From Thermoanaerobaculia bacterium (GTDB taxonomy: Bacteria > Acidobacteriota > Thermoanaerobaculia > UBA5066), in contig CAVRAY010000001.1 of assembly GCA_963719225.1 (NCBI GenBank), positions 2,272,001 through 2,336,000 on the forward strand: a stretch of DNA of 64,000 nt. Reading direction: 5' to 3'. Both the position numbers and the translations under genes were made by a program. Below, in pieces: positions 21,329 to 47,893 of this stretch (positions within the stretch are counted from its first letter, which is position 1; every line of letters starts with the position of its first letter). The notes beneath the pieces are model-generated. The model worked only from the letters and a program-made list of their open reading frames with translations. It had not been told where the DNA came from and did no database searches.

Positions 21329-24159
21329 TACCGCGATCCCGACGGCGCGAGGCGCTTGAGCTCCTGCGCAAAGTCCGAAACGAGGGTCACGTGGTTGGTC
21401 TCGAGCGTGCTCGCGGTCCCCTCCCGCGTCAGGACGAGAAACTTCTGGCCGTCCGGCGAGACGTCCCATCCGGCCGCGATCCGGCTGCCCATGTCGTACG
21501 ACTCGAGCCGGAAGAGCGTCTCCTCCTTCCCGAAGACCGGCGCGCCTCCCTCCGCCGAGACGCGGGTCGCCGCGACCGATCCGTCGCGGCGCAGGAAAAG
21601 CAGGGTCCCGTCGCGGCTCCAGCGCGGGTTCGAGCCCATCTGCTCCGAGACCTGCCATTTCGCGTCGCCGCCCGCGGCGCTCCGGACGAACACGTACCCG
21701 AGGCCTCCGTCGGTGGAGTCGTAGGCGAGCCAGCGACCATCCGGCGAGAAGACCGCGCCGCCCTCGTTCAAGGGACCGGCCACGACGATCGATGGCTCTC
21801 CGTCGGCTTCGCCATTCTTCAGCCGGATCACGCCGACGTCGAGCTGGGTCGCGGGCGTCGTCACCTGGTAGGCGAGCACCCGCCCGTCCGGCGAGAAGCT
21901 CGTCACTCCCAGGGTCCCCGCCGTCTTGAAGAGCAGACGCGGCGACCCCGAGCCGTCGGCCCGCTTCAGATACACGCCGCGGACCGTCGCGGGAGTGCCG
22001 CCCGGGCTCGTGACGAGCCCGAGCGATCGGTCGGACGTGAAGGCGACCTCGCGCCCGTCGGCGCTCCACACGGCCGTCTGACTGTCGCCTTCGAACGTGA
22101 GCTTCGAGAAGGCGTCGCGGGCGACGTCGTAGACCCAGACGTCGCTCTGCGTCCCGCCGCTGATCACGACGGCGGCGCGATTCCCGTCGGGCGCAAAACG
22201 CACGAACGCATAGCCGCGGGCCACGCCTGCCTTCTTCAGGACCGTCCCCTTCCGGTCGACGAGAGCGAGCTTGAAGACGGTTTCGTTCTCTCCCATGCGA
22301 TACGCGCAGGACCCCGAAGCCGACACGTCGATCTGGGCGCTGCCGTCGGAGGGCGCCTCGCCTCCGGTGGACGACATGATCTTCTCGAGGACCGGCACGG
22401 GACGCCCCGAGAGGACGAGCCGGCCCGCGTCGAAGGAGGCGGCGTAGATCGTGCCCTTCCGCGCGAAGAGGACGTGTCCGGACGGCGCCCAGCGCGGATA
22501 CGCTCCTCCCTTGTGGACGAGGGTCCTCTTCCCCGTCGCGAGCTCGACCGCCTCGACGTTCCCCTCGTCGTAGTCGGTGCCCGAGAACTGCGTCGAGAAG
22601 AGGACGGCCTTGCCGCCCGGAAGGGCCGCCGGCCAGCGGTGCGACCGCTCCCGCGCGGCGACGTCCGCCTTCGTCAGGGGCCTGGGCTCGCCGCCGTACG
22701 CCGAGACCTGCGAGAGGCCGCCCGTCGTCTGCGGCGCGAACACGATCGTGTCGTCCGACACCCACGCGCCGCCACGCGGGATGGACACGTCGCAGATCGT
22801 GGCCGGGGCGCCGCCCGAGACCGGCGCCTTGCGCAGCTTGCCGCGGGCGAAAAACCCGATCCACTTCCCGTCGGGCGAGAAGAAAGGGCTCAACGCGCCC
22901 TCCGACTCCGGGACCTCGACGGGAACCAGACGGTCGAGCCGCCTCAGGAAGAGGCGAGCCCGGGAGCCGCGCGTCACGTACGCGAGCAGGGTCCCGTCCG
23001 GCGAGACGACGACGGCGGCGCCCCCGCCGTCCATCAGCTCGTCGGACGAGAGGAGGATCTGGCCGCGTATGGACGGAACGGTTTGCCGGGCGCGAGCGCG
23101 CAGCGCGAGCGCCCCCGCCGCGGCCGCGAACGCGGCCGCAATCACCCAGGGGAGAAAGAGGGAGAGAGAGTTTTTGCTCCCTCTCGCCACTCTCGTCGCA
23201 TCGCGACGACCTACAGTGGGGCTGGGCACTGCGGTCTTTTCTTCGAAGGGTAATTGGCCGGAGGAGCTGGCCGTCGCGGCGAGCTCTTCGAGGTCCAGCC
23301 GCGCGTCTGCGATGTCGTGGAGGCGTTGCTTCGCCTCCCGCCTCAGACACTTTCCAAGCAACTCTCTTATCTTCCGGGGAGTCTTCTCCGGCAGCGCCGT
23401 CCAGTCCGGGTCTTTCGAGAGGATCGAGACGAGCGTGTCGCTGACGGTCTCCCCTTCGAAAGCGCGCTTGCCCGTCAGCATCTCGTAGAGCACGCACCCA
23501 AACGCCCAGACGTCCGTCCTTTTGTCGACCGGTTTCCCCCGCGCCTGCTCGGGCGACATGTACGCTGCCGTGCCCAGAATCATCCCGGCCGCTGTGGCGC
23601 GCGCCGTCAGCGTCGGCGAGTGGGTCACGGAAGGCGCCGAGGCCGCGCCTCCGTCCCCCTCGAAGATCTTCGCGAGGCCGAAGTCGAGAAGCTTCACGCG
23701 CCCGTCGGGCGTCACCTTTACGTTCGCGGGCTTGAGGTCGCGGTGGACGATCCCCTTCTCGTGCGCAGCCTCGAGCGCCTCGGCGATCTGTTTCGCGAAA
23801 GAAAGGGATTCTTCGAGTGGAAGAGGGCCGGACGAGAGGCGCTTCGCGAGGTCCTCCCCCTCGACGAGCTCCATGACGAGGAGGTGGCGCGTCGACGAGG
23901 AAGAAGACGAAGCGGGGATTTCTTCGAATGAATAGATGCCGGCGATGTTGGGATGGTTGAGCGCCGCGAGGAGTCGCGCTTCCCTCTCGAAGCGCTGTCT
24001 CCTCTCTTCACCTTCGAAGAATTCTTCCGGCAGGACCTTTAGGGCGACCTCTCGCGCGAGGCGAGCGTCCCGCGCCCGGTAGACCTCCCCCATTCCTCCC
24101 GCGCCGATCGCGCCGAGAATTTCGTAAGAACCGAGCTTCGCGCCTGTCTCGAGACTCAT
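21328..24159 (-). CDS. K1: Ser/Thr kinase-TM-TolB/PD40-like beta-propeller receptor
   Basis: [27 protein letters not shown] helix, multiple SPDG repeats. Confidence 0.95.
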   Translation of the reverse strand: MSLETGAKLGSYEILGAIGAGGMGEVYRARDARLAREVALKVLPEEFFEGEERRQRFEREARLLAALNHPNIAGIYSFEEIPASSSSSSTRHLLVMELVEGEDLAKRLSSGPLPLEESLSFAKQIAEALEAAHEKGIVHRDLKPANVKVTPDGRVKLLDFGLAKIFEGDGGAASAPSVTHSPTLTARATAAGMILGTAAYMSPEQARGKPVDKRTDVWAFGCVLYEMLTGKRAFEGETVSDTLVSILSKDPDWTALPEKTPRKIRELLGKCLRREAKQRLHDIADARLDLEELAATASSSGQLPFEEKTAVPSPTVGRRDATRVARGSKNSLSLFLPWVIAAAFAAAAGALALRARARQTVPSIRGQILLSSDELMDGGGAAVVVSPDGTLLAYVTRGSRARLFLRRLDRLVPVEVPESEGALSPFFSPDGKWIGFFARGKLRKAPVSGGAPATICDVSIPRGGAWVSDDTIVFAPQTTGGLSQVSAYGGEPRPLTKADVAARERSHRWPAALPGGKAVLFSTQFSGTDYDEGNVEAVELATGKRTLVHKGGAYPRWAPSGHVLFARKGTIYAASFDAGRLVLSGRPVPVLEKIMSSTGGEAPSDGSAQIDVSASGSCAYRMGENETVFKLALVDRKGTVLKKAGVARGYAFVRFAPDGNRAAVVISGGTQSDVWVYDVARDAFSKLTFEGDSQTAVWSADGREVAFTSDRSLGLVTSPGGTPATVRGVYLKRADGSGSPRLLFKTAGTLGVTSFSPDGRVLAYQVTTPATQLDVGVIRLKNGEADGEPSIVVAGPLNEGGAVFSPDGRWLAYDSTDGGLGYVFVRSAAGGDAKWQVSEQMGSNPRWSRDGTLLFLRRDGSVAATRVSAEGGAPVFGKEETLFRLESYDMGSRIAAGWDVSPDGQKFLVLTREGTASTLETNHVTLVSDFAQELKRLAPSGSR
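23090..23254. repeat. 165-bp juxtamembrane+TM cassette (other copies at 25845-26009, 42350-42514, 46824-46988)
   Basis: All four copies run GCGCGAGCGCGCAGCGCGAG...CTTCGAAGGGTAAT and have identical length. Confidence 0.85.
23917..24026. repeat. Intragenic box I/box II inverted motif pair, copy in K1
   Basis: GATTTCTTCGAATG at 23917 and CTCTTCACCTTCGAAGAATTCTT at 24004. Confidence 0.85.
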
Positions 24160-24169: not shown

Positions 24170-26923
24170 CTATCTTCCGATCGCAGGCCAGTTGAGAACG
24201 ACGACGGCGGGCTGATCCTGCCGGTCGTCGGCGGACGCGACGACGAGAAAGCGACTTCCGTCCGGGGCGGGCAGGTACTGGGAACGGCTGTCGGAGATCC
24301 CGTTCTGGGGCACGCGCACCGGGAAGAGAACCTTCGGGACGCCGACCTCGACGTCCCTCTTCAGGGACAGCTCGACTGCCATGAGCTTGCGGTCGCTCGA
24401 TAGGAAATAGAGCTCCCGCCCGTCTGCGCGCCAGAGCGGCTGGTCCCCGCCGTCCTTCGAGATCTGCCATTTCCCCCCCGACGGAGGGAACCTCTGAACG
24501 TACACCTCGGCGCGGCCCGTCTCGTCGGACACATACGCGAAGAACGCGCCGTCGGGCGACGGAGAGGCGTGAGCCGTGAATGCCTGCGGCGTACCGAGGA
24601 GGTGGACCGGCTTGCGCTCTCCGCGGAGCGGCAGCCTCCAGAGGTCGGAGCGGCCGCTTTCGTTCGGGCTTTCGTAAACGAGCCAGGCCCCGTCCGGCGA
24701 GATGAAGTCGCCGTAGTTGTCGAGCGAAGTGCCAAGGACCGGTTCGTCTCCGCCCGAGCCGTCCAGGGGGCGCCTGAAGAGGCCCATGCGCCCCTGACGG
24801 TTCGAGGAGAAATAGAGGAACTTGCCGTCCGGTGACGCCATCCCCGTGTTGTTGGCCTTGGGCCCGAACGTGAGCCGGGTCCACGTGCCGCGCACGAGGT
24901 CGATCTGCCAGAGGTCCGGAAGATCGGTGCGCTTGTCCGTCACGGCGATCCCGAGGCGCTGCGCGCCGAGGAACCAGAACGGTTCGAACATGACGGCGGG
25001 GTCCCCGACCGTCCCGAGGGACTTGCCCGCGCGATCGAACCACGTGAGTCTCTGCCGGGAGCTCGCCCGGCGCCTGTAGACGAGCGTGCCGTCTCCGCCG
25101 GCCGCGAAGGGCGCAAGACCCGTCCAGCCGCTTTCACCCTCGGCGACGATTCCGTCCACGACGAGCCCGGGCTCCCCGGACAGCCGGCGTCGGCCGGCGT
25201 CGAACACCTGCGCATAGAGCGAGCTCTCGCGTACGTAGAGGAGGCGGCCCGCGTCGTAGGCGGCCCATCCTCGCGTCGACACGACGAACGCGTCGTCGGT
25301 CGAGTCGAGGGAGGCGACGCGGATGCCGGTCCGAGCCGAGTCGTCGCTCAGGCAGAGGTAGAGGAAGTGGGATCCGTCCGGCAGCACCCTCGGCCAGCGG
25401 TGGGTGTAGTCCTTCGGGCCGAACGTCGTCGCCGGAACGGGGACTCCGCCCATCGCGCTGACCCGGTGGAGCGCGGTGCGGATCCCGGTGGAGAAGACGA
25501 TGACGCCTCGAGGGAGCCACGTTCCGCCGCGCCCATCCGTGACCGGGCAGATCGTCTGGGTCGGTCCCCCAGCCGCGCTCACGCGCGCGAGACGGTCGCC
25601 CGTGAAGAAGGCAATCGCGGTTCCGTCCGGGGACCAGAACGGGAACCGCGCGCCCTCGGTCTCGGCGAGAACCTGGGCGCCGATGGAGTCGAACGAGCGG
25701 ACGTAGAGCCGCTCGACGTCTTTCTCGTCCGACGCGACGAAAACGAGCCGGCGCCCGTCCGGCGAGACCGCCATCGAGTTGCCGAAGGACGTTCCCTCGG
25801 GAACCCGGACCTCGAACTGGACGGCTGGCGCGTCCCGCCGCGGGGCGCGAGCGCGCAGCGCGAGCGCCCCCGCCGCGGCCGCGCACGCTGCCGCAATCGC
25901 CCAGGGGAGAAAGAGGGAGAGAGAGTTCTTGCTCCCTCTCTCTCGACTCGCAGAAGCGCTTCGACCTACAGTGGGGCTCGGCGCCGCGGTCTTTTCTTCG
26001 AAGGGTAATAAGGGAGACGAGCTCCCGGCGCCGGCTGCGCCCAATTCCTCGAGGTCGAGGCGTGCGTCGGCGATGTCGTGCAGTCTCAGCCGTGCATCGC
26101 GCTGCAAGCACCTTCCAAGGATCTTTCTTATCGCCGCCGGCGTCTGCGCCGGCAGCGCCGCATAGTCGGGCTCTTTCGTGAGGATCGCCGCGAGCACGTC
26201 CGTCACAGTCTCCCCCTCGAAGGCGCGCTTGCCCGTCAGCATCTCGTAGAGCACGCAACCGAAGGCCCAGATGTCCGTCCGCTTGTCGAGCGCCTTACCC
26301 CGCGCCTGCTCGGGCGACATGTACGCGGCCGTCCCGAGGATCACGCCCGCCGCCGTGGCACGCGCCGTCATTGTCGGCGAGTGCGTGATGGACGGTGCGG
26401 AGCCAGGGACGGAATCCCCCTCGAGGATCTTCGCGAGGCCGAAGTCGAGGAGCTTGACCCGCCCGTCGGGCGTCAGCTTGACGTTCGCCGGCTTGAGGTC
26501 GCGGTGGACGATCCCCTTCTCGTGCGCCGTCTCCAGCGCCTCGGCGATCTGCTTCGCGTAGGAAAGAGACTCTTCGAGTGGAAGAGGGCCGGAGGAAATC
26601 CTCTGTGCGAGGTCCTCTCCCTCGACGAGCTCCATGACGAGGAGGTGACGAGTCGCAGGAGAAGAAGAAGACGAAGAGGGGATTTCTTCGAATGAGTAGA
26701 TCGCGGCAATTCCAGGATGGTTCAGCGCCGCGAGGAGCCGCGCTTCCCTCTCGAAACGCTGCCTCCTCTCTTCACCTTCAAAGAATTCTTCCGGCAGGAC
26801 CTTGATGGCGACCTCTCTCGCGAGGCGAGGGTCCCGCGCCCGGTACACCTCTCCCATCCCGCCCGCGCCGAGGGGCGAGAGCATCTCGTAGGGGCCGAGC
26901 TTCGTGCCGGGAGCGACCGTCAC
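24170..26923 (-). CDS. K2: Ser/Thr kinase-TM-beta-propeller receptor
   Basis: Same kinase motifs, TM and WSPDG/SPDG repeats. 917 aa. Confidence 0.95.
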   Translation of the reverse strand: MTVAPGTKLGPYEMLSPLGAGGMGEVYRARDPRLAREVAIKVLPEEFFEGEERRQRFEREARLLAALNHPGIAAIYSFEEIPSSSSSSPATRHLLVMELVEGEDLAQRISSGPLPLEESLSYAKQIAEALETAHEKGIVHRDLKPANVKLTPDGRVKLLDFGLAKILEGDSVPGSAPSITHSPTMTARATAAGVILGTAAYMSPEQARGKALDKRTDIWAFGCVLYEMLTGKRAFEGETVTDVLAAILTKEPDYAALPAQTPAAIRKILGRCLQRDARLRLHDIADARLDLEELGAAGAGSSSPLLPFEEKTAAPSPTVGRSASASRERGSKNSLSLFLPWAIAAACAAAAGALALRARAPRRDAPAVQFEVRVPEGTSFGNSMAVSPDGRRLVFVASDEKDVERLYVRSFDSIGAQVLAETEGARFPFWSPDGTAIAFFTGDRLARVSAAGGPTQTICPVTDGRGGTWLPRGVIVFSTGIRTALHRVSAMGGVPVPATTFGPKDYTHRWPRVLPDGSHFLYLCLSDDSARTGIRVASLDSTDDAFVVSTRGWAAYDAGRLLYVRESSLYAQVFDAGRRRLSGEPGLVVDGIVAEGESGWTGLAPFAAGGDGTLVYRRRASSRQRLTWFDRAGKSLGTVGDPAVMFEPFWFLGAQRLGIAVTDKRTDLPDLWQIDLVRGTWTRLTFGPKANNTGMASPDGKFLYFSSNRQGRMGLFRRPLDGSGGDEPVLGTSLDNYGDFISPDGAWLVYESPNESGRSDLWRLPLRGERKPVHLLGTPQAFTAHASPSPDGAFFAYVSDETGRAEVYVQRFPPSGGKWQISKDGGDQPLWRADGRELYFLSSDRKLMAVELSLKRDVEVGVPKVLFPVRVPQNGISDSRSQYLPAPDGSRFLVVASADDRQDQPAVVVLNWPAIGR
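26681..26790. repeat. Box I/box II pair, copy in K2
   Basis: GATTTCTTCGAATG at 26681 and CTCTTCACCTTCAAAGAATTCTT at 26768. Confidence 0.85.
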
Positions 26924-26924: not shown

Positions 26925-29582
26925 TCACCGTCCCAGGTCCGCGTACCAATTCAGGACGACCGTCGTCGGCGTCATCGCGTCGCGCCCCAGCGGGGCCACC
27001 GTGAGGAAACGCTTCCCGTCGGCGGTCACGAGAAAGCGGTTGCGAGCGACTCCCGAGTCGAAACGACCCTGGAAGAGCGCGTGCGGGGTTCCGGCCGTGA
27101 TGCCGCTTCCGGTCTGAATGTCGACCGCCATGAGTTTCTGATCGAGCGTTCGGTAGTACAGCTCCTTGCCGTCGACGCGCCACTGCGGCTCTCGGCCGCC
27201 CGCGGTGGAGATCTGCCACTTGCCTCCGGGGCCGGGGAAGCTCTGGACGTAGACCTCCACGCGTCCCGACTCGTTCGACTGATACGCCAGAAAACGGCCG
27301 TCCGGCGAGAACACGGCCATCAGCTCGGCAAACGGGGTCTTCAGGAACGGGACGGGCTTGCGCTCGCCGGACATGGGCATGACCCAGATGTCCCAGTTCG
27401 TGTCCTTGCCGAGACTCGAGAAGGCGAGCATTTTCCCGTCGCGACTCCAGTCGCATGCGAACTTCGTCTCGTCCGACTTGAAGATCAGCTTCTCCTCTCC
27501 CTGGCCCTCGACGGCCTTCTCGAAGAGGTCGTCGCCCACGGCGAACACCATGCGGCGGCCGTCGGGAGACCACAGGGGAACGGTCGCAGCGCCGGCGCCG
27601 AACGTGAAGCGGGAGCTGACGCCGCGCTTCAGGTCCCGGACCCAGACGTCGGTCTTGCCGCTCCGCGGATCCGCGAGATCGAACGCGAGGCGATCGTAGC
27701 CCGGGGCGAACGCCGGATTGCGGTAGTCGCCCGGGTCGCCGACCGCTTCGCCCTCCTTGCCCGAGCGGTCCACCCAGACGAGCCTGTCCCCGCGCTCACC
27801 CGTGCGATACGCGAGGGCCCCGTCGCGCGAGACCGAGAAGAGAGCGAGGCCGACGCTGTCCGTGCCGATGTGCTCGGCAAGCGGAATCGGCTCGCCCGTC
27901 GTCTTCATGGCTTTCGCGTCAAACGGCTGGGCGACGAGCGTCCGGTCGCGCACGAAGAGGAGATAGCCGGGCGGCGCATACGTGACGAGCGTCTGTGCGG
28001 GCGCGAGGAGCTTCGTCTCCGCCGAGTCGAGCGTCCCGATCCGGTAAGCGCTGTCCTCCGCCTTCTGCCCGATCGCCATGTAGAGGAAGTGCCGGCCGTC
28101 CGGAAGGAACTCAGGCCAGCCGACCTGCCCCTCCTTGCGCGAAGCGTCAGGCTTTGCGGCGACGACGAGTGTTCCCCCCGCGGCCGAGACGCGGTTGATC
28201 GGCTGCGTGCCCGTGCCGTCGAAGAGAATGACACCCTCGGAGCTCCAGGATCCGTCGGCGCCTCCCGGCGCGTCGCAGATCTTCTGCGGCGGGCCGCCCG
28301 AGACCTCGACCTTCTTGAGCTTGCCCTCCGCGAAGAACCCGAGGAACCGGCTGTCGGGCGACCAGAAAGGCCGCGTCGTGTCCTCCGTGCCGGGGAGAGG
28401 TTGCGCGGCGAGAGCGTTGAGCGGCCGGATCCAGATGCGGCTCTTGCCGGACGCGTCGGTCGCGTTGAACGCGAGGTACCGCCCGTCCGGAGAGAGACGG
28501 GGCGCGTCGATCGTCGTGAGCCCCTCCGGGTTCGCGATCTCGAACCGGACCAGCTTCGGGCGGGCGGGGGCGCGCCGGACGAAGCCCACGGCCAGGGCCG
28601 CCGCCGCGAGGGCGGCAGCCGCCGCGAGAGCCCACGCGAGCCGTTCGCGGCTCTTCCTTCTGTGGGCGACGGGGGCCGGCAGCCCGACCTGCGATCCTCC
28701 CTCCGCGATCCACTGGAGCTGCAGCTTGATGTCGTGAGCCGTCTGGAAGCGGTCCTCGGGATCCTTCGCGAGACAGGTCTTCACGACACGGTCCAGCGCC
28801 GGGGGCGTCATCGGGGCGATCGTCGAGACAGGAGCGGGCTCGTCCTTGAGGATTGCCGAGATCAGGGCGGCGTGACTCTTTCCCTCGAAGGCCTTCCGGC
28901 CCGTCGCCATCTCGTAGATCACGGCGCCGAACGAGAAGATGTCGCTTCGCGCGTCGGATTCCTTGCCCTCGAGCTGCTCCGGCGCCATGTACTGGAACGT
29001 CCCGAGGATCGTGCCCTGCTGCGTGATCGAGCGCGGCATCTCGGTTGGCAGCGACGTGGCCGAGGACGAAGACTTCACGGGCGCCGCCGCCGTCTTCGCG
29101 AGGCCGAAGTCGAGAAGCTTCACCCCGGACTTCGTCAGCATGATGTTCCCCGGCTTCAAGTCGCGGTGGATGATGCCGGCGTGGTGAGCCGCGTCGAGCG
29201 CGCCCGCGATCTCGACCGAGATCTTCAGGAGCTGCTCGGGCTCGAGCGGGCCGCGCAGGAGCCGCTCGGCGATCGTCTCACCCGCGAGGAGCTCCATGAC
29301 GAGTAGATGGCGGGAGGACGAAGAAGGAGAGGAAGAGGGGATTTCTTCGAATGAATAGAGGGTGGCGATCCCGGGATGGTTCAGGCTCGCGAGCAGCCTG
29401 GCTTCCCGCTCGAAGCGGGCCTTGTTCTCTTCACCTTCTAAGAAATCTTGCGGCAGTACCTTCACCGCAACGTCGCGTCCGAGGCGGGAGTCCCTGGCCT
29501 TATAAACCTCTCCCATCCCTCCGGCGCCGAGCGACGAGAGGATTTCGTAAGACCCGAGCCTGTTGCCGGGAGAAAGTGTCAT
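26925..29582 (-). CDS. K3: Ser/Thr kinase-TM-beta-propeller receptor (885 aa)
   Basis: Likely start [10 protein letters not shown] at 29582 (ATGA overlap). [21 protein letters not shown]. Confidence 0.95.
29340..29449. repeat. Box I/box II pair, copy in K3
   Basis: GATTTCTTCGAATG at 29340 and CTCTTCACCTTCTAAGAAATCTT at 29427. Confidence 0.85.
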
Positions 29583-32161
29583 CGAGCCCCCTCCACAAGA
29601 AAAAGATGGGATGACATGCGGCGGCATGCGTACGCGTAGCTCTTGAGGTCGCCGCTGAAGACGAACGGCCCGACGTCCAGGACTCCAGTCAGGTCGGCGG
29701 GGCCGAGCGTGCGCATCGGTTCGCGCCGGCCCGTTGCGATCTCGAGCCTCTCGATGCGGGCGGGAACCTCCCCGCTGCGCGAGACGAGCATCGAACGGCC
29801 GTCTGGGCTCCACCGGATGACCTTGTCTTCGGGAGTCGCGCCCGCGACGGGCCGAGGCTCGCCTCCGTCGACTGGATAGAGGACGAGAGCGCCGCCGCTC
29901 GCCTTCACGAGGAGCAGCTGGCCGTCCGGCGACACGAACCCCTGGCTCGTTCCCTCCGGCGTCACGGGGCGGGGCTTGCCCGCTGCGACGTCCTGCACGA
30001 AGCACCGGACGGCCTTTCCCTCCTGGTGGCCGCAAACGACGATCCTCTTCCCGTCCGGGAAGAACTGCGCCCACTCGTAGCCGACGAGTCCTCCCCGCTC
30101 GAACTTGAGAGGCTCGCCAGCGCCGGTGGGATAGAGCACGAGCTGAGGGGGCGTCGTGAAAATGACGGCGAGCGCCCACTTCCCGTCACGGGACAGGTCG
30201 TTCGCGGCGCCTTCCCCGAGGCGGACGACCGGCGACCCGTCCGTCTGGCGCAGGCACACCGCGTAGTTCACGCCGACGCTCCCGCTCTCTTCCGAAAAGA
30301 GGAGCGTCCTGCCGTCTGAACTCAGAGCCGACGGGTCGGACAGGTCCAGCCACGAGAGGTCGCGCTCCCGAGTCTGGCCCGGCGCGAGGACCGGCATCTC
30401 GCGGAAGAAATCGTCCCGCGTCGTGAGCCAGCGCCCGTCCGACCGGACGTCGTGGATCGTGAGGCCTCCGGCGCTCTCGAGCGCGACTCGCCGCGTGCCC
30501 GCGAGGGTGACTCCGTAGACGCGGAAGTTGTTGTAGGCGTTTCCCGCGGAGAACATGACCTCGTCTCCCGACGGGGACCAGGCCAGTCCCTCCTCGCCCC
30601 AGTAGCCTTCCGAGAGGATCGTCTTCTTCCCGGCGAGGTCCACGACGACGACTTCTCCGCGGTCGTCGAACCGGAACGGATGCTGGAAGAAAGCGATCCG
30701 GTCCCCGCGCGGAGAGAACCGGGGATTGCTGAAGTAGCCGCCCGTCTCGGCGAGGACCTTGCCGGTCGGGTACTCCAGACGGTCCTTGCCCCCGAAGTCC
30801 CGGATCAACGCCAGGTTCGCGCCGTCGGGGGACCAGTCGGCCTCGCGCACACCGTCGAGGACGTCCCTCGGCGCGCCGCCCTCCAGCGGCATCCGCGCGA
30901 GGGTGCCTTCATAGAGGCTGTGACCCTTGTACCGGACGCGGGTGAGCACCGCCAGCTCTCCCTTCGATGAAATCGAAAGCAGGTGTCCGGCGAGCAGGGA
31001 GCGCGGGCTCGCGCCCGGGTAGTCCGCTCGAAGCGAGAAGATCTCCGGCGTGTTCCCGGACGGGGCCGCGCTATAGACGACCGTCTTTCCGTCCGGGGCG
31101 AGCCGGGCGTTGAAGATCGGCTCCTGCCGAAACGTGAGCTGCGCGAAGGACGGGACGGCGACGATCGAGCGCTTTCCCTTCCACAGCCCGACGCCAAACG
31201 ACGCCGCGGCAGCGAGGACGCCGACTGCAATCGCGGCGGCGGGAACCCAGCGACGGACGCTCCGCGTCGACGCAAGCGCGGCGGCCCGGCCGGACGCGGA
31301 GCTCCCGCCCAGCGCTTCGAGGTCGTACGCGAGGTCGCGAGCCGACTGGAACCGTTCCGCCGGGTTCTTCTCGAGGCAATGCCGGACGAGTCGGTCGAGC
31401 TCGGGCGGGATTTTCGCGCCCGAGACGTCCGGGTCGGGCGGCTCCTCCTTGAGGATCGCGTTCATCGTCTCGATCGCCGAGTCGCCCTTGAACGCGCGCC
31501 GGCCCGTCAGCATCTCGAAAAGGACGCAGCCGAACGCGAAGATGTCCGACCGGGCGTCGGCCGGCAGCCCTCTCACCTGCTCGGGCGCCATGTACCCGAC
31601 GGTCCCGAGGAGCGTCCCGGGATCCGTGGCCTTCGCGAGCGTCGGCGAGTTCGTGTCCTCGCCGGCCGTGACCGCGCGTTGCTTCGCGAGACCGAAGTCC
31701 AGGATCTTCGCGCGTCCGTCCTTCGTGAGGACGACGTTTTCGGGCTTGAGGTCCCTGTGAACGATTCCGCTCTCATGCGCCGCCGCGAGGCCGCGCGCGA
31801 TCTGCGCTCCGAGCTCCACGGCCTTGCGCAGAGGCAGGGCCCCCGCGGTGATCCGCTCGCGGAGCGTCTCCCCGTCCACGAGCTCCATCACGAGGAGGTG
31901 CCGGGGAGGAGAACCGGGGATTTCTTCGATTGAATAGATCGCCGCAATGTTCGGATGGTTCAGTGCCGCGACCAGCTTCGCTTCTCGCTCGAAGCGCGCC
32001 CGGCGCTCTTCACCTTCTAAGAAATCTTCCGGCAGCACTTTGACTGCGACGTCCCTCGCCAACCTCAGGTCCCTCCCTCGGTAGACCTCTCCCATCCCTC
32101 CCGCCCCGAGCGGCGAAACGATTTCGTACGCTCCCAGTTTCATTCCGGCGGCGAGCGTCAT
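29579..32161 (-). CDS. K4: Ser/Thr kinase-TM-beta-propeller receptor (second ectodomain class)
   Basis: [11 protein letters not shown]. Ectodomain begins F.QLTFRQ..IFNAR.APDG. Confidence 0.95.
31919..32028. repeat. Box I/box II pair, copy in K4
   Basis: GATTTCTTCGATTG at 31919 and CTCTTCACCTTCTAAGAAATCTT at 32006. Confidence 0.85.
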
Positions 32162-40067: not shown

Positions 40068-40666
40068 GGTTCCTCCTCGATCACGATCTCATCCCCGTCC
40101 ATCGACCTGATCCTGACGAGTGCCTCGACGGGTACGCCCAGGGATGCGACCGCATCGCGGCCACCCTCGAACGCCTTCTCGATGAGCGCGCCGACGCCGA
40201 CGATGCGCGCCCCGGCAGCGCCCGCGAGGCGGGCGAGGCCGAGGATCGTCGCGCCGGACGCGAGGAAGTCGTCCACGATGAGGACGCGCTCGGCGGCACC
40301 GAGGTACTCGGGTGAAACGATGAGCTCCACCGTGCGCCCCTTCGTGTGCGATGGCGCCAGGGTCAGGAAGACCTGGTCGGGCATCGTGATCGGCTTGCTC
40401 TTGCGGGCATAGACGACCGGGATCCCGAGGTGGAGGGCCGTGGCGACCGCGGGGGCGATGCCCGAAATCTCGGCGGTGAGCACCTTCGTCGCGCCCTCCG
40501 GCGCGAAGCGCCGGGCCAGCTCCTTCCCGCAGGTGTCCATGAGACGGGGATCCACCTGGTGGTTGATAAAGCCGTCCACCTTCAGGATCCCGCCACCGAG
40601 GTTGCAGCCGTCGCGCCGGATCCGGTCTGCGAGGAGCGCGTGCGCGCCCGTGGCGATCGGACTCAT
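40064..40666 (-). CDS. xpt: Xanthine phosphoribosyltransferase
   Basis: ILKVDGFINHQVDP.LM, VLTAEISGIAPA, PRPP-binding VLIVDDFLASG, IEKAFEGGR. 200 aa with RTGA overlaps at both ends. Confidence 0.93.
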   Translation of the reverse strand: MSPIATGAHALLADRIRRDGCNLGGGILKVDGFINHQVDPRLMDTCGKELARRFAPEGATKVLTAEISGIAPAVATALHLGIPVVYARKSKPITMPDQVFLTLAPSHTKGRTVELIVSPEYLGAAERVLIVDDFLASGATILGLARLAGAAGARIVGVGALIEKAFEGGRDAVASLGVPVEALVRIRSMDGDEIVIEEEP

Positions 40667-43431
40667 TTCCTGCCGCTCCGCTCCGCCGGCCAGTTCACGA
40701 CGAGGTCGAGCAGGGCATTGGGCTTCTGGCCCTCGCCGACGACGAGGAGGCGCTCGTGGTCGGCCGTCGGGGAGAAGCCCGGCGCCGCCGGGCTCGGGCC
40801 GGGGGCGCGCATGAGGGGCCGGCTCGCACCGACCTCGAGGCTCTCCCCCCGCGACTCGACGCTCACCGCCCGGACGATTCCGGACGTGTCGTGATACAGG
40901 ATTTCCTTGCCGTCGGCGCTCCAGAACGCGTACGCGCCCCCTTCGGTCGAGATCTGCCACTTCCGGCCGGCGCGCGGGAAGGAAGTGGCGTACACCTCCC
41001 AGCGGCCGGACTCGTCGGAGCTGTAGGGTAGCCACTTCCCGTCGGGCGAAAGCGGCGAGGCGACGAGGCTCGCTTTCGACTTGAGGACGACCTCCTGCGC
41101 GTGCGTGGCGTCGAGCGCGAGCGTCCGGATTTCCGCGCCCGGCGCATCGCCCCACTGGACGAACACGATCTTGCCTCCGTCCGGCGTCCAGGCCGACGCC
41201 TCCTTGTCGATGTCCGAGACGAGAAGGGGCTCCTCGTCTCCGGTGCCGTCGAGCGACTTGCGAAAGAGGTCCTCGTGGCCCTTTCGGACCGAGGAAAAGA
41301 CGATGGACCGCCCGTCCGGGGACCAGAGCGGCGACCGGTCGTTCGCGGGGTCGAACGTGAAGCGCGTCCTCACGCCGCGCGCCACGTCCACGATCCAGAT
41401 GTCGTAGGTGGACGTCGCGGCATCGAGGGCCGTCACGGCCGCGAGCTTGCCGTCGGGCGAAAGCACGGCGCCCTGATACTCGCCGGCCTCGCCAACGTAC
41501 TCGGCCGCCTTGCCATCGCGGGTGAACCACCGGAGCCGCGACGCGAGGTCCCCGCGCGCTCCCTGCGTCACGAGAACGCCGTTCTGCGACGCCGAGAAGC
41601 AGGCGATCGCCGTCTGGACCGACGGCATCACGATGCGGTCCACGAGAGGAGACGCCTCGCCCGTGAAAGTTCCATTCGCGTCGATCGGGCGCGCCATCAG
41701 CGTCGCGTCGCGCAGGTAGAGGAGATGGCCCGAGGCGAACTGGGGTGCGGCCGGAGAGCGCAGGAGGACCTTCTCGGCCCCCCCGTCGAGAGACGCGAGG
41801 ACGATCGGGAACCCTTCCGCGGCGGACGCCGCCGAGCGCGCAACGTAGAGGAACCGCTTCCCGTCGGGCAGGAACCGCGGGTGGCGGTGTGAGTTGTCGC
41901 CGCGCTTGAAGTCGATCTTCGTGACTTCGACCGAGTCCCCACCCTTTTCGGAGACCTTGAAGATCGATGTGTTCGCCGAGGGCGCGAAGAGGACGACGCC
42001 CACGGGGCTCCAGGCGCCACCCTTTCCTTCGGGCGCCGGGCAGAGCGTCAGCACCGACCCGTCCGCGACGCCGATCGTCTTCAGCTTCCCGGGCACGAAA
42101 AAGCCCAACGAGCGGCTGTCAGGCGACCAGAACGGGTACTGCGCGCCCTCGGTGTTCGGAAGCACCCGCGCTTCGGCGGCGTCCAGCGGGCGGACGTAGA
42201 GGTTCACCTTCCCGACGCCGTCCGCCGCCGAGAACGCGACGGATTTCCCGTCCGGCGAGACGATGGCCGGGCCAGGGGTGTTGGACTCGAGCCAGAAGCT
42301 CGTGCCCTCCGGAGGCGAGATTCGCGCGCGAACGACCGGCGCCCCCGGGGCGCGAGCGCGCAGCGCGAGTGCCCCAGCCGCGGCCGCGAACGCGGCCGCA
42401 ATCGCCCAGGGGAGAAAGAGGGAGAAAGACTTTTTGTTCCCTCGCTCCAGTCTCGTCCGTTCTGTGCTTGCTACAGCGGGGCTGGGCAACGCGGTCTTTT
42501 CTTCGAAGGGTAATGAGGAAGACGAGGTCGCCGCGCCGGCTGCGCTCAATTCCTCGAGGTCCAGCCTCGCATCGGCGATGTCGTGGAGGCGCTGCTTCGC
42601 GTCCCGCCTCAGGCACTTTCTGAGAATCTCCTTGACCTTCTCCGGTGTTCCCACCGGCAGCGCCTCCCAGTCCGGCTCACCTCTCAGGATCGCCGCGAGC
42701 GTGTCGGAGACGGTCTCGCCTTCGAAAGCGCGCTTGCCCGCGAGCATCTCGTAGAGAACGCAACCGAACGCCCAGACGTCCGTCCGCTTGTCGACCGTCT
42801 TTCCCCGCGCCTGCTCGGGGCTCATGTACGCCGCCGTCCCGAGGATCACGCCCGCCGCCGTCGCGCGCGCCGTCAGCGTCGGCGAATGCGTGACGCCCGC
42901 ACCCGACCCCGCGACCGAATCCCCCTCGAACATCTTCGCGAGGCCGAAGTCCAGGAGCTTCACGCGGCCCTCGGGCGTGACCTTCACGTTCGCGGGTTTC
43001 AGGTCCCGATGCACGATCGCCTTCTCGTGCGCGGACTCCAGCGCCTCGGCGATCTGACGGGCATATGAAAGAGATTCTTCGAGGGAAAGAGGGCCCGACG
43101 CGAGGCGCATTGCGAGGTCTTCTCCCTCGACCAGCTCCATCACGAGGAGATGCCGGGTCGACGGAGAGGAAGAGGAGGAAGAAGAGGGGATTTCTTCGAA
43201 TGCGTAAAGAACGGCGATTCCGGGATGATTCAGGCTCGCGAGCATCCGAGCTTCGCGCTCGAACCTCTGCCGCCTCTCTTCACCTTCGAAGAATTCTTCC
43301 GGCAAGACCTTCAGTGCCACCGCCCGATCGATGCGAACGTCCTTCGCCCGATAGACCTCTCCCATCCCTCCCGCGCCCAAGGGGTCGGTGATCTCGTAAG
43401 AGCCGAGCCTCGTCCCCGTCGCGAACGTCAC
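40663..43431 (-). CDS. K8: Ser/Thr kinase-TM-beta-propeller receptor (922 aa)
   Basis: GTG start (TFATGTRLG) at 43431. HRDLKPAN, DFG, SPDG repeats. Confidence 0.95.
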   Translation of the reverse strand: MTFATGTRLGSYEITDPLGAGGMGEVYRAKDVRIDRAVALKVLPEEFFEGEERRQRFEREARMLASLNHPGIAVLYAFEEIPSSSSSSSPSTRHLLVMELVEGEDLAMRLASGPLSLEESLSYARQIAEALESAHEKAIVHRDLKPANVKVTPEGRVKLLDFGLAKMFEGDSVAGSGAGVTHSPTLTARATAAGVILGTAAYMSPEQARGKTVDKRTDVWAFGCVLYEMLAGKRAFEGETVSDTLAAILRGEPDWEALPVGTPEKVKEILRKCLRRDAKQRLHDIADARLDLEELSAAGAATSSSSLPFEEKTALPSPAVASTERTRLERGNKKSFSLFLPWAIAAAFAAAAGALALRARAPGAPVVRARISPPEGTSFWLESNTPGPAIVSPDGKSVAFSAADGVGKVNLYVRPLDAAEARVLPNTEGAQYPFWSPDSRSLGFFVPGKLKTIGVADGSVLTLCPAPEGKGGAWSPVGVVLFAPSANTSIFKVSEKGGDSVEVTKIDFKRGDNSHRHPRFLPDGKRFLYVARSAASAAEGFPIVLASLDGGAEKVLLRSPAAPQFASGHLLYLRDATLMARPIDANGTFTGEASPLVDRIVMPSVQTAIACFSASQNGVLVTQGARGDLASRLRWFTRDGKAAEYVGEAGEYQGAVLSPDGKLAAVTALDAATSTYDIWIVDVARGVRTRFTFDPANDRSPLWSPDGRSIVFSSVRKGHEDLFRKSLDGTGDEEPLLVSDIDKEASAWTPDGGKIVFVQWGDAPGAEIRTLALDATHAQEVVLKSKASLVASPLSPDGKWLPYSSDESGRWEVYATSFPRAGRKWQISTEGGAYAFWSADGKEILYHDTSGIVRAVSVESRGESLEVGASRPLMRAPGPSPAAPGFSPTADHERLLVVGEGQKPNALLDLVVNWPAERSGRK
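43189..43298. repeat. Box I/box II pair, copy in K8
   Basis: GATTTCTTCGAATG at 43189 and CTCTTCACCTTCGAAGAATTCTT at 43276. Confidence 0.85.
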
Positions 43432-45086
43432 TTCGCGTCGTCCTTCAGCCCCAGCATCTCCCACCGCTGGAGGGAGAGCGGGACGTTCCCATTCTTGTAG
43501 ACGAAGTCGTGGAACGCGCGCAGCCGGAACGAGTCGCCCTGCGCCTTCTTCGCTTCGGCGAGGAGCCGCAAAACCTGGAGCTTCCCGATCTGGTACGTGA
43601 TCGCCTGTCCGGGCGACGACGCGAACGCCGCCGCCTCGGCTCGCGCGGTTTCGGCATCCATCGGGACTGCGGTCCTGAGGTACTCGGCCGCTTGTGGGAT
43701 CGTGAACGTCCCGAGCGCGAGCCTGACGTCCACCTCGACGCGCAGAGCCCTCAGGCGCATGTAGTTCGCGACCATCTCGCGTGTCTTCGGCGCGTCCGCG
43801 TAGAGGCCGGTCGAGAGGAGCAGCTCCTCGGAGTAGAACGCGAGGCCCTCGATCGGGCCGGAGTCGTAGAACGCTCGGCGGATCTCGTCCTCGTGCCGCG
43901 ACGCGAGCGCGAGCTGGAACGCGTGCCCCGGGATCCCCTCGTGCGACATGTGCGGACGCCGGTCCTTCGCCATCGAACCCGCGAAGTAGCCGAGCTTCGC
44001 GGACGGCTTCGGGATCCAGCGGATCGAGGGCTCGCCCGGCCGCGCCGTGTTCGCGAAAAGAGTCCACTCGCCGAAGCCGTCCAGCGCCTCGAGGTACGGC
44101 GGCACGGGCAGGTCGACGTAGCGCGGAAGGTCTGCGGGCACGCTCGCGATCCCCTTCTCCTCGAGGAACCGCCGGATCTCGGCCTCGGCGCGTGCCGTCA
44201 TCGCCGACTGGGCGGCCTGGTTCGGGACCATCGCGAGCTCGGGCGCGCCCGTGTTGCGCTGGCGCTCGTAGACCTCGAGCGCAACGGAGCGGTCGTACTC
44301 CTGCCGGCCCATGAGGAGCAGCTCCTCCGGCGTGAACGGTACGAGAGCGACCTCGCGGAGGAAGAAGAGATAGCCGTCGCGGCCGACCGGCTTCCGGTCC
44401 GACAGCAGCGGCAGACGGGCCTCGAGCCAGACCCTGAAGGACTCCAGCGCCGCGATCGCGCTTTCCGTTGCCGGGCCGACGCGCGCGCGCGCGTCCGGAG
44501 CGAGAAATGGGGAGAGCGCCGCCATGGACGCCTTCAGCTTCAAGCCGATCCTCTGCAGATCCTCGATCGCGAGCTTCGTGAACGGCGCGGCGGCTTCGTG
44601 GAGCATGGCTTGCGCCTGATCCAGCGTGCGCGGGATCGACTCCAGCCGCACCGCGAGGTCCGTGCTGCGCGCCTCGTCGAAGGGTGGCGGCGACAGCATC
44701 GCGTCCACGAGAACCGGCAGCGTCTGGTCCACCCAGAACGTCGGGTCGCGCCGCCACGAGCGCTTGACGTCCAGCTCCCAGCGCACGCGCGCGAGAGCCG
44801 AGCCGATCAGGCGCCGATCCACTTGCCACGGGACCGGACGCGACGGATCGGCGAGCGCCTTCAGGCGTTCCTCGAAGAGGACGAGCGTCCGGCGCCGGGT
44901 CTCGATGGAGTCCGCCGACCAGTCGGGCGCCCAGCCGTGCGGCCGGACGACTCGCGCCACGTCGTCGCGGTCCATCGGCTTCGTGACCGCGCGCCAGGAC
45001 CAGAAGTCGCGGGAAAGCGTCAGGAGGTCGTCGGCCGCGGCCGGGCACGCGAAGGACAGCACGAGTGCGATCGCGACGGATCTCAT
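43428..45086 (-). CDS. Exported DUF885 family protein
   Basis: Signal peptide MRSVAIALVLSFACPAAA, HEGIPGH.FQL, EG.AFYSEE, PGQAITYQIGK, LR.FHD. Confidence 0.85.
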   Translation of the reverse strand: MRSVAIALVLSFACPAAADDLLTLSRDFWSWRAVTKPMDRDDVARVVRPHGWAPDWSADSIETRRRTLVLFEERLKALADPSRPVPWQVDRRLIGSALARVRWELDVKRSWRRDPTFWVDQTLPVLVDAMLSPPPFDEARSTDLAVRLESIPRTLDQAQAMLHEAAAPFTKLAIEDLQRIGLKLKASMAALSPFLAPDARARVGPATESAIAALESFRVWLEARLPLLSDRKPVGRDGYLFFLREVALVPFTPEELLLMGRQEYDRSVALEVYERQRNTGAPELAMVPNQAAQSAMTARAEAEIRRFLEEKGIASVPADLPRYVDLPVPPYLEALDGFGEWTLFANTARPGEPSIRWIPKPSAKLGYFAGSMAKDRRPHMSHEGIPGHAFQLALASRHEDEIRRAFYDSGPIEGLAFYSEELLLSTGLYADAPKTREMVANYMRLRALRVEVDVRLALGTFTIPQAAEYLRTAVPMDAETARAEAAAFASSPGQAITYQIGKLQVLRLLAEAKKAQGDSFRLRAFHDFVYKNGNVPLSLQRWEMLGLKDDAK

Positions 45087-47893
45087 TTCGTCTTCACCGT
45101 CACGGCCCAGTTCTGGACGAGGGTCAGCGGCGTCGAGGCCTTCTCGGTGACGACCGCGTTCACGATGAACTTCTGCCCGTCCGGGAACGGGTCGTACTGG
45201 GGGATGTTCGTCCGCCGACTCTGCAGCGTGAACAGCTCGTGCGGCGTGCCTTTCTCGAACGCCGCTCCGGTCTTCACACTCACCGAGGTGAGGCGGAATC
45301 CTTCCGCGAGGTAGAAGAGCTCGCGTCCGTCGCGGCTCCACCTCGGCTGGGAGCCTCCTCCCGCGGAGATTTGCCATTTCCCCCCGGCGCCGCTCGACGG
45401 CCGGACGTAGACCTCCTGCCTCCCGGTCTCGTTGGACATGTACGCGACCCAGAGACCGTCTCGGGAGAAGGCCGCGTCGCGTTCCGAAGCCGGCGTGCGC
45501 AGGAACTCGCGAGCCTTGCCGTCGGCGGCGGAGAGCAGCCAGATGTCGTCCGCCATCTCCGCCGTCGAGCCGTTGTAGACGATGAACCGTCCGTCGGGAG
45601 TCCAGTCCGTCAGAAACTTGGATCCGGGGGAAAGGAAGGCGTCCGCCGGCGAGGAGACGGGCGCCGAACCTGTCGGCGCCGCCCGGGCGACGATCCGCTC
45701 CTCGTCGCCGCCCACGAGGGTCTTCTCGAAGATGAACCACAGGCCCTTCCGGAAGGAGCCGAACGCAAAGCGCCTCCCGTCCGGAGAGAAAACGGGCGTG
45801 TAGTCGTCACCGGGATCGAACGTCCGTCGTACTGGTTGCTCCGCACCGACCGCGTCGAACGTCCAGATGTCGCGATTGCTGCTCACGGGGTCGATCAATT
45901 CCGTGACGACGAGCCTTCCATCCGGCGACACGCGCGGAGTCCAGTAGTTCCCGACGTCTCCCAGCGTGCGAAGGACCTTTCCGGCGCGGTCGTAAACCGC
46001 AAGTCGGGAGTTTCCGATCGTCCCCCCCGCGGCGTAGGCGAGGAGGCCTCCCGCGGAGGCGGTGAAGATGCCGGTTCCGCCGTCCGCGAGGTACTGGACG
46101 CGCGGCACCAGGACGATCGGATCGCCGGTCGTCTCGAGCCGGCCGGCGTCGAACGCCTGCGCCATGAGACTCCCGTTCCACGAATAGAGGAGGTGGCCGG
46201 GGACGTAGATCGCGCGGGTCGCGGCCCTGACGAGCAACTTCCTTTCCTTGTGGCCGACGGCCTGGACATAGAGCTCGCTCTCGTTCCGCCGCGTCTCCCG
46301 GTCGACGCGCTGGACGATGTAGAGAAAATGCACCCCGTCCGGAAGAAACTGCGGCCACTGGTGGGAGCTCTCTCCACGCGTCTCGTCCACCGTCGTGACC
46401 TGCACGCGCTCTTTTCGTCCCGGCATGATTCTGAAGATCGCGTTGAGCAGCGCCGGCGAATAAAGGATCGTGCCGTCCGGGCCCCACGCGGCTCCGCGGC
46501 CGGGACCGCTCGCCGCGATGAACTCGACCGCGCCGCCCGAAGAGGGAATGGCCGCGAGGCCCGTCGCCTGGCCCATGAAGCCGATCATCCGGCCGTCCGA
46601 TGACCAGAACACGTTCCGCACGGCCTCCGTGCCGGGAAGCAGAAGCGACTCGCCGGACGCGAGGGACCTCACGCAAAGCTGGTTCTTCTTTCCGTCCGTG
46701 ACGAGGAACGCGAGCCGCGAGCCGTCCGGCGAGAGGACGGGGGGACCGCCGAGAAGGTCGAATGTCCAGCCTTCCGGCGGCAGGAGCGACGCCGTCAGGC
46801 TCGACGCCGCCGGCGACTGCGGGGCGCGAGCGCGCAGCGCGAGCGCCCCCGCCGCGGCCGCGCACGCGGCCGCAATCGCCCAGGGCAGAAAGATAGAGAG
46901 AGAGGTTTTGCTCCTCCTCTCACGACTCGCTCGTTCCGCGCTTGCTACAGTGGGGCTGGGCACGGCTGCATTTGCTTCGAAGGGTAATTGGCCGGATATG
47001 CCAGCCGTCGCGGCCGTCTCCTCCTCGAGGGCGATGCGCGCGTCCCCGATGTCCCGCAGGCGCTGCTTGGCGTCGCGCTGAAGGCACCTGCGCAGCAGCT
47101 CTTTCACCTTCGAGGAAATCGGCGCGCGAAGCGCGCTCCAGTCCGGCTCTTTCATGAGGATCGCCGCCAGCGTGTCGCTCACGGTCTCCCCTTCGAAGGC
47201 CCTCTTCCCGGTCAGCATCTCGAAGAACACACACCCGAACGCCCAGACGTCCGTCCGCTTGTCGACGGGCTTTCCGCGCGCCTGCTCGGGACTCATGTAC
47301 GCCGCCGTCCCCAGGATCACCCCCGCCGCCGTCGCCCGCGCCGTGAGTGTCGGCGAGTGCGTCACGCCCGCGGAGGACGCGGAGGTTCCGTCCCCTTCGA
47401 AGATCTTCGCGAGACCGAAGTCCAGGAGCTTCACGCGCCCTTCGGGTGTGACCTTCACGTTCGCGGGTTTCAGGTCCCGGTGCACGATTCCCTTCTCGTG
47501 CGCGGCCTCCAGCGCCTCGGCGATCTGCTTCGCAAGAGAAAGCGATTCTTCGAGTGGAAGAGGGCCCGACGCGAGGCGCACCGCGAGATCTTCCCCCTCG
47601 ACCAGCTCCATGACGAGGAGATGGCGGGACGATGAAGAAGAGGAAGAGGGGATTTCTTCGAATGAGTAGATCGACGCGATCCCCGGATGATTCAGGCTCG
47701 CCAGGGCGCGCGCTTCCCTTTCGAAACGCGTCCTTCTCTCTTCACCTTCAAAGAATTCTTCCGGCAAGACCTTGACCGCGACATCACGATTGAGGCGAGG
47801 GTCCTTCGCCCGATAGACCTCTCCCATTCCCCCAGCACCGAGAGGCGCAAGAATTTCGTACGGTCCGAGTCGGACGCCAGAAGCAATCGTCAC
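45083..47893 (-). CDS. K9: Ser/Thr kinase-TM-beta-propeller receptor, first gene of the array
   Basis: Kinase motifs, TM and SPDG repeats. 936 aa. Confidence 0.95.
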   Translation of the reverse strand: MTIASGVRLGPYEILAPLGAGGMGEVYRAKDPRLNRDVAVKVLPEEFFEGEERRTRFEREARALASLNHPGIASIYSFEEIPSSSSSSSRHLLVMELVEGEDLAVRLASGPLPLEESLSLAKQIAEALEAAHEKGIVHRDLKPANVKVTPEGRVKLLDFGLAKIFEGDGTSASSAGVTHSPTLTARATAAGVILGTAAYMSPEQARGKPVDKRTDVWAFGCVFFEMLTGKRAFEGETVSDTLAAILMKEPDWSALRAPISSKVKELLRRCLQRDAKQRLRDIGDARIALEEETAATAGISGQLPFEANAAVPSPTVASAERASRERRSKTSLSIFLPWAIAAACAAAAGALALRARAPQSPAASSLTASLLPPEGWTFDLLGGPPVLSPDGSRLAFLVTDGKKNQLCVRSLASGESLLLPGTEAVRNVFWSSDGRMIGFMGQATGLAAIPSSGGAVEFIAASGPGRGAAWGPDGTILYSPALLNAIFRIMPGRKERVQVTTVDETRGESSHQWPQFLPDGVHFLYIVQRVDRETRRNESELYVQAVGHKERKLLVRAATRAIYVPGHLLYSWNGSLMAQAFDAGRLETTGDPIVLVPRVQYLADGGTGIFTASAGGLLAYAAGGTIGNSRLAVYDRAGKVLRTLGDVGNYWTPRVSPDGRLVVTELIDPVSSNRDIWTFDAVGAEQPVRRTFDPGDDYTPVFSPDGRRFAFGSFRKGLWFIFEKTLVGGDEERIVARAAPTGSAPVSSPADAFLSPGSKFLTDWTPDGRFIVYNGSTAEMADDIWLLSAADGKAREFLRTPASERDAAFSRDGLWVAYMSNETGRQEVYVRPSSGAGGKWQISAGGGSQPRWSRDGRELFYLAEGFRLTSVSVKTGAAFEKGTPHELFTLQSRRTNIPQYDPFPDGQKFIVNAVVTEKASTPLTLVQNWAVTVKTK
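47651..47760. repeat. Box I/box II pair, copy in K9
   Basis: GATTTCTTCGAATG at 47651 and CTCTTCACCTTCAAAGAATTCTT at 47738. Confidence 0.85.

Follow-up and report, generated by a model that had tools for sequence, protein, structure and literature searches.

Probable exchange of a kinase-linker-transmembrane module among receptor kinases of a Thermoanaerobaculia tandem array, and a genus-restricted DNA signal within it

The 64,000-nucleotide (nt) stretch analyzed here (the window: positions 2,272,001 to 2,336,000 of contig CAVRAY010000001.1, assembly GCA_963719225.1, from a Thermoanaerobaculia bacterium of an uncultured, soil-type group) harbors a nine-member tandem array of genes, K1 to K9, coding for proteins with a Pkinase domain, a transmembrane (TM) helix, and PD40 repeats. 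Four of them (K1, K2, K8, and K9) share a 165-nt block, the cassette, encoding the linker and the TM helix. The explanation that we favor, and that we hold to be reasonably probable, is that conversion and unequal exchange spread the kinase-linker-TM module and that the linker was shaped by selection for a spaced, putatively protein-binding signal. The first ~100 nt of the block are not kinase-specific and represent the long form of a genus-restricted DNA signal. The genes of the array are the following (window positions; aa, amino acids):

K1, 21328..24159, minus strand: Hanks-type Ser/Thr kinase with cassette linker and TM and a PD40/TolB-like ectodomain, 943 aa
K2, 24170..26923, minus strand: same architecture as K1, 917 aa, with an ectodomain matching solved TolB structures
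K3 to K7, 26925..40067, minus strand: kinases without the cassette, with an N-lobe signal pair in each
K3, 26925-29582, minus strand
K4, 29579-32161, minus strand
K5, 32300-34753, minus strand
K6, 34750-37461, minus strand
K7, 37458-40067, minus strand
K8, 40663..43431, minus strand: cassette kinase, 922 aa
K9, 45083..47893, minus strand: cassette kinase, 936 aa

The array is interrupted by two non-kinase genes with overlapping start and stop codons (40064-40666 and 43428-45086, minus strand), whose motifs suggest a xanthine phosphoribosyltransferase-like and a DUF885-like protein, respectively. In the seven window proteins scanned against Pfam (K1-K4 and K7-K9), the Pkinase domain scored above the cut-off (162-170 bits). 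The catalytic motifs HRDLK and DFG are present; a single TM helix, judged by sequence and hydropathy window, is followed by PD40/TolB-like repeats. TolB structures were the best PDB matches of the K2 ectodomain, and the ectodomains are predicted to be periplasmic sensors. Receptor Ser/Thr kinases of the Hanks type that bear beta-propeller ectodomains are known from bacteria (PMC2877116); PknD of M. tuberculosis is the textbook case. The proteins of the array share with them the kinase-TM-propeller layout, the Pfam domains Pkinase and PD40, and the TolB matches, and differ from them in forming a nine-gene tandem array with mosaic members and in carrying a DNA signal in the N-lobe and linker.

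A sequence-only reading of the window had described the four blocks as indel-free, with a similarity that collapses after the ALALRARA tract. Their places and length were confirmed, and the alignment of the four copies is gapless, with 84-89% nt identity:

K1 cassette, 23090..23254, minus strand: arm core 23239-23247, middle box 23211-23221, third box 23174-23183, TM-coding part 23088-23151
K2 cassette, 25845..26009, minus strand: arm core 25994-26002, middle box 25966-25976, third box 25929-25938, TM part 25843-25906
K8 cassette, 42350..42514, minus strand: arm core 42499-42507, middle box 42471-42481, third box 42434-42443, TM part 42348-42411
K9 cassette, 46824..46988, minus strand: arm core 46973-46981, middle box 46945-46955, third box 46908-46916, TM part 46822-46885

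Compared without gaps, the copies share 73-85 of the first 100 nt and 61-63 of the last 65 nt (94-97%); past ALALRARA, only 11-25 of the next 60 nt are identical, which is the background level, and the collapse is thus real. The lack of indels holds for these four copies and not for the relatives, in which many length variants occur across the genus. Likewise, the block exists, but it is not by itself the conserved unit, the whole kinase domain being common to the four proteins as well (79-82% amino acid identity, and 28-36% for the ectodomain).

At fourfold-degenerate sites, over the six pairs of the four genes, 12 of 111 positions differ in the TM part (11%) and 14 of 65 in the 5′ part (22%), versus 331 of 818 in the kinase domain (40%) and 364 of 687 in the ectodomain (53%); saturation for the codon usage of this genome is reached at 48-61%. 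The silent divergence of the ectodomain is therefore far from equal to that of the cassette, and conservation of the latter is not limited to the protein: since its silent-site differences are few in comparison with kinase and ectodomain, the cassette is conserved as DNA. What had been overlooked is that about 100 of its 165 nt are part of a genome-wide DNA signal. A genome-wide BLASTN search with the cassette retrieved non-kinase matches only to the first ~105 nt or to short TM-like pieces, the ~105-nt matches lying antisense in other genes or in intergenic regions.

The arrays of the relatives were fetched for comparison. The cassette, whole or in part, precedes ectodomains of at least 14 clusters (58% identity cut; 14 of the 23 clusters listed, the other nine having been dropped as antisense, frameshifted, or non-cassette matches). 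Trees were built with 24 proteins picked from 62, a group chosen after the data had been seen; in this group the cassette label is clustered on the kinase tree, where four changes suffice (as few or fewer in 0 of 500 shuffles), and scattered on the ectodomain tree, where it takes nine (as few or fewer in 471 of 500), and the approximately unbiased (AU) test rejected a cassette clade for the ectodomains (p about 1e-51). Moreover, orthologous ectodomains are found on different kinase/TM modules in the relatives, a check that the sequence-only reading had proposed. In genome G013 a K1-type ectodomain (80-85% identical) is attached to a 55%-identical kinase, the switch falling in the TM just before AGALALRARA, and in G020 a K8-type ectodomain is attached to a K3/K6-type kinase. 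A second G020 gene combines a kinase 82-100% identical to its neighbor over codons 90-285 with the cassette TM and a third ectodomain type, and in G017 two genes with unlike ectodomains match each other at 93-100% identity from codon 15 to codon 165. Kinases lacking the cassette swap parts too (K5/K7 and K3/K6 types), and one tract of this kind lies in the window:

39850..40015 (K7) and 34536-34701 (K5), minus strand: near-identical tract of 166 nt with 2 mismatches

The K5 and K7 kinases are otherwise ~69% identical as proteins, and the tract is likely a recent conversion. In principle, plain duplication, purifying selection on the kinase and TM protein, and fast ectodomain divergence could have produced the array with no exchange at all; this would fit the kinase silent sites of the four genes, which are near saturation (40%), as well as the finding that K1, K2, K8, and K9 each have orthologs with a matching kinase in other species. 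We regard this history as extremely unlikely, because orthologous ectodomains that are 65-85% conserved between species are nevertheless borne by kinases of different clades, and because the K5/K7 tract and the silent-site conservation of the cassette speak against it. The mosaic genes already contradict it, unless they are assembly chimeras.

As for further junctions, the cassette TM is joined to mid-ectodomain at two loci, in frame in L023 (G022) and out of frame in L225 (G003); the latter may represent an assembly error. Among public reads, 11 DNA runs with small shares and no RNA run were listed; four of the DNA runs yielded mostly contigs of relatives, one of which had a K1-like ectodomain and a K2-like segment, too weak to count.

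A comparable conversion of the TM and signaling domain between tandem receptors is described for the mammalian Toll-like receptors TLR1 and TLR6 (PMC2077338). In both cases the TM and signaling domain are homogenized, the sensor is divergent, and the edge near the TM is sharp. Unlike TLR1/TLR6, the system described here is bacterial, involves at least 14 ectodomain families and several exchanging kinase clades, and has a TM without an excess of within-species identity. Domain shuffling in CEACAM is reportedly a further example of exchange between receptor paralogs.

While the mosaic genes and the tree conflict sustain the exchange of kinase and TM modules between ectodomains, they do not sustain the single crossover zone that the sequence-only reading had placed at ALALRARA. 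The within-genome tracts of at least 25 codons (n = 12) are scattered from codon 19 to 324; junctions lie upstream of the TM, within it, and past it, including ones that follow AAAFAA or AAAAGA and ones with insertions of 3 codons; and non-cassette kinases swap as well. ALALRARA is thus an edge of shared homology and not a proven crossover site. Furthermore, TM silent sites are no more alike within genomes (80 of 410 differ, 19.5%) than between them (588 of 3047, 19.3%; p = 0.54). In its strict form, that reading would invoke a dedicated site-specific crossover at the GC-rich tract, and the unusual conservation of TM silent sites across species (19%, versus 50-63% in the K3/K6-type TM), a 9-bp inverted repeat within the tract, and one recombinant switching beside it can be adduced in its favor. 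We consider it very unlikely, given the several other junctions and the swapping of non-cassette kinases, the restriction of the tract to these kinases, a folding only weakly better than that of synonymous recodings (mean z -0.84), and the fact that no recombinase-like gene was noticed among the array open reading frames (ORFs), seven window proteins having been scanned. Some TM Ala codons are invariant in 21 of 21 sequences, and the cassette TM is either held as DNA or spreading across species.

According to the scenario that we favor, repeated gene conversion and unequal recombination in the tandem array likely joined the module to at least 14 ectodomain families. Exchange would start in the homologous kinase domain and be resolved at any point up to where the shared sequence ends. 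A frequent place for this would be the GC-rich run of Ala codons in the TM, as a source of microhomology to other TMs rich in Ala; the boundary behind ALALRARAP would stay sharp for want of homology beyond it. In this way, one signaling output would be kept while the predicted periplasmic sensors diversify.

The remaining part of the cassette leads to the DNA signal. Its core, CCTTC[T/G]AAGAAA, is found with at most two mismatches in ~745 arms of this genome, the arm density being about 160 per Mb. No other 8-mers of this genome are as over-represented as the core words (TTTCTTAG occurs 216 times vs. 6.3 expected), and a weight matrix retrieved 510 sites above 24 bits, versus 35 in the reversed-genome control. 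Neighboring arms within 300 nt are back-to-back in 255 cases, face-to-face in 9, and in tandem in 56, about 9 being expected per class; most pairs are spaced by 65-170 nt, the mode being 75-79 nt, and the spacing was devoid of helical phasing (best Rayleigh z 3.8 at period 8). According to the gene positions of our own gene caller, the 205 nearest pairs outside the array fall within one predicted gene (111), straddle a gene end (35), or are intergenic (59). Arms in genes occur in all six reading frames, at permissive coding positions. Three housekeeping genes, AlaRS-, IleRS-, and NuoG-like as judged by their N-termini, harbor five to six arms each (contig C1 of this genome, G000: 2438276-2441080, 2113423-2116416, and 2394073-2395872).

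In the cassette, the long form of the signal is composed of the arm, the middle box, and the third box, and the distance from arm to third box is 64 nt in 16 of 20 cassettes; genome-wide, 15 of 33 third-box matches lie at +61 to +69, where about one is expected. The long form is also present at several non-kinase loci of this genome. Of 24 loci examined in relatives, 20 map to five non-kinase genes of this genome, in which it stands at orthologous places and in antisense frames; the other four are kinases. The GC content at third codon positions is 0.52-0.61 in the 5′ part of the cassette versus about 0.9 in the ectodomains. Both the odd codons of the cassette and its missing indels are accounted for by the first ~100 nt being a spaced signal, and the gapless block by the preferred 64-nt box spacing. 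Selection on DNA for the signal, rather than on the peptide, would fix LPFEEK...PSPTVG...ERGSK and its length, and the signal itself is likely a spaced docking site for a putative protein. The linkers of outgroups do not align with that of the cassette. One further arm lies beside the cassette of K1:

23352..23360, plus strand: oppositely oriented arm in the K1 C-lobe, coding around KIRELL, 113 nt from the cassette arm

Its counterparts in K2, K8, and K9 fall below the threshold. In addition, the N-lobe of all nine kinases carries a pair of arms 93 nt apart, read as PEEFFEGEE and as YSFEEIP plus a poly-Ser insert:

K1, 23910..24030, both strands: N-lobe signal pair, arm centers 23924 (minus) and 24017 (plus), 93 nt apart
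K2, N-lobe pair, 93 nt: 26688/26781
K3, N-lobe pair, 93 nt: 29347/29440
K4, N-lobe pair, 93 nt: 31926/32019
K5, N-lobe pair, 93 nt: 34518/34611
K6, N-lobe pair, 93 nt: 37226/37319
K7, N-lobe pair, 93 nt: 39832/39925
K8, N-lobe pair, 93 nt: 43196/43289
K9, N-lobe pair, 93 nt: 47658/47751

This genome contains 67 kinase-like ORFs, 17 of which have an arm; K1 alone has five. Two neighboring kinase ORFs (C1:1477502-1480222 and 1481390-1482844) share the same N-terminal sequence, owing to a recent duplication or an assembly repeat. An N-lobe arm is present in 86 of 95 array-type kinases and in none of the kinases of five other genera (27 read from 30 loci), whose N-lobes are mostly of equal length between the two arm positions; from this it follows that the N-lobe arms arose by substitution around native sequence. 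N-lobe identity is equal within and between kinase clades, and the C-lobes retain the clade structure.

The signal is confined to a narrow lineage (the counts include the unpublished genome G037, one row). All 28 genus relatives contain 14-125 copies and the eight other genera of the family contain none; exact pairs were retrieved from 15 of 251 genomes of the class, namely 14 of this genus and one of a sister genus. With a looser core, 25 genus genomes harbor 33-245 copies, five genomes of the sister genus g18 harbor 1-28 (G101, 2; G183, 28; G276, 1; G291, 5; G301, 10), and 81 others at most two; in g18 the signal may be rising or decaying. The 80 titles listed for public loci with the paired signal are all Acidobacteria or Thermoanaerobaculia.

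Along the chromosome, arm density rises with distance from dnaA (rho 0.69, p 7e-8), which suggests either a role in chromosome organization or weaker counter-selection toward the terminus. The matS sites bound by MatP are a few palindromes confined to the terminus macrodomain. They resemble the signal in being a short motif denser toward the terminus; here, unlike there, hundreds of paired asymmetric arms form a broad gradient and no binder was found. A replichore polarity of single arms, as in FtsK-orienting polar sequences (KOPS) or Chi, was not supported (91 vs. 69, p = 0.10).

A different origin would be from mobile elements or their fossils, similar to miniature transposable elements with inverted repeats (MITEs), repetitive extragenic palindromic (REP) sequences, or Rickettsia palindromic elements, with the 5′ part of the block having landed in frame in the linker. 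According to PMC3733652 and PMC10969869, REP, BIME, and REPIN elements (the last with their associated transposase, RAYT) and the Rickettsia elements are inverted dimers with variable spacers and often unlike partners, and intragenic copies are read as peptide. The signal shares these traits. Its long form is common to unrelated genes in different frames, inverted pairs tend to be unlike (36 vs. 25.5 expected, 80 loci), GTAG is present in the middle box, and 13 of 15 TTTGCAGA(A/C)C words directly follow an arm; the copy number also differs from genome to genome, with 1-28 in the sister genus. Against such an origin, the N-lobe arms replace native codons around a native spacer, sites stand at orthologous places across species, and by eye there are neither sharp ends nor target duplications. 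The spacers are unrelated to one another and fold no better than controls, no co-variation of arms within pairs was found (the observed value is attained in 397 of 2000 shuffles), and the signal, unlike REP and REPIN, has no stem-loop per unit and an origin by substitution. The Y1 transposase expected of RAYT was not found in this genome and is absent from 24 of its 27 relatives in the genus, hence from 25 of 28 genomes in all; the other three contain it. On this balance, a mobile origin appears unlikely.

A hairpin or RNA structure was rejected as a cause of the signal, the folding of the four 5′ halves being inconsistent (z -2.0, -1.6, +0.2, and +0.3); Rfam gave 0 matches at the gathering score in window positions 21000-48000. 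The outer flanks of arms recur genome-wide as TCTTCTCTT, ATCCCCGGT, AATCCGAAT, and TTTGCAGA(A/C)C, the last of which we take to resemble insertion sequence (IS) ends. A 1.34-kb IS, presumably IS5-like, with CTAG at both ends and one transposase ORF, is present in nine copies that are 99.7-100% identical (C1:766247-767583, 1348821, 2033783, 2195399, 2504663, 3739390, and 3785885; C2:91872 and 423211), with a weak arm ~80 nt inside its right end. It was discarded as the source of the signal, having only this one weak arm and different terminal repeats.

The abundance of the word recalls DNA uptake sequences (DUS) and uptake signal sequences (USS), which are likewise lineage-specific, over-represented, present in hundreds of copies at permissive intragenic places, and conserved as DNA (PMC2397512). 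The arm differs from them in being longer and asymmetric, mostly in back-to-back pairs with spaced secondary boxes, at a lower density and with a terminus gradient. The signal might, by analogy, be an uptake-like or recombination-promoting tag, spread by biased uptake or conversion and itself driving the module shuffling. The arms at permissive positions in six frames, the comEC and comEA homologs of this genome, the 86 of 95 kinases with an N-lobe arm, the N-lobe identity equal within and between clades, the five arms of K1, and the link between DUS and conversion tracts in Neisseria (PMC2397512) can all be read in this way. So can the lack of strong arms for 60 kb past the array (window 47760-64000 and on to C1:2380001), despite an arm-rich chromosome half; this stretch is possibly acquired DNA, as its codon score is the lowest among long gaps. 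Yet two to three of the 14 longest arm gaps have atypical codon use and most have ordinary use, and comEC and comEA occur in most control genomes too. The arm density is well under the one DUS per 1.1-1.5 kb reported in that source, and the arms of a pair are separated by 65-170 nt instead of lying within 21 nt of each other like terminator DUS. Moreover, codons 1-38, which lack the signal, are homogenized equally, and inspection of 12 tracts by eye gave no obvious clustering of their ends at arms. We judge a tag of this sort quite unlikely. A bolder proposal, doubtful though conceivable, is that the paired multi-box signal is a new chromosome-wide recognition code, read by a putative factor and strong enough to rewrite the N-lobe and linker of a kinase. 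It would also favor recombination among the genes that carry it, which would turn the array into a signal-driven generator of receptor combinations.

Several data weigh against module exchange in the tandem array joined to selection for a docking signal. Pairs from different genomes share tracts of at least 25 codons at the same frequency (92 of 3920, orthologs included) as pairs from one genome (12 of 545), and kinase silent divergence is barely lower within genomes (39%) than between them (41%, p = 0.03); together with the lack of excess TM identity, this implies that most homogenization is old or cross-species. Single odd junctions may be errors, since frameshifts affect G006 (excluded from trees and tract counts, kept in the TM silent-site count) and several further assemblies. 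Few loci harbor the long form together with its middle box, and it could have spread among them by copying. The terminus gradient presupposes that both contigs, joined in this order, form a single circle, and in G028 the 100 listed sites look fairly even over 2.9 Mb. Finally, a search for the binder via arm-rich genes retrieved housekeeping genes only and no candidate.

No description of this array or signal was found in the literature searched, subscription papers and supplements lying outside the search. The array combines known kinds of process in a new way and carries the signal besides. It represents a clear bacterial case in which receptor kinases keep the signaling end and exchange sensors, and its natural chimeras test the free modularity of ectodomain and kinase. 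The apparent protein conservation of the linker peptide and of the N-lobe peptide with its poly-Ser would be imposed by a DNA signal and would mislead annotation and phylogeny in the genus. Because the signal has a defined pairing and spacing, is limited to a lineage, and is present in low copy number in a sister genus, a search for its reader is feasible, and g18 would be useful in this respect.

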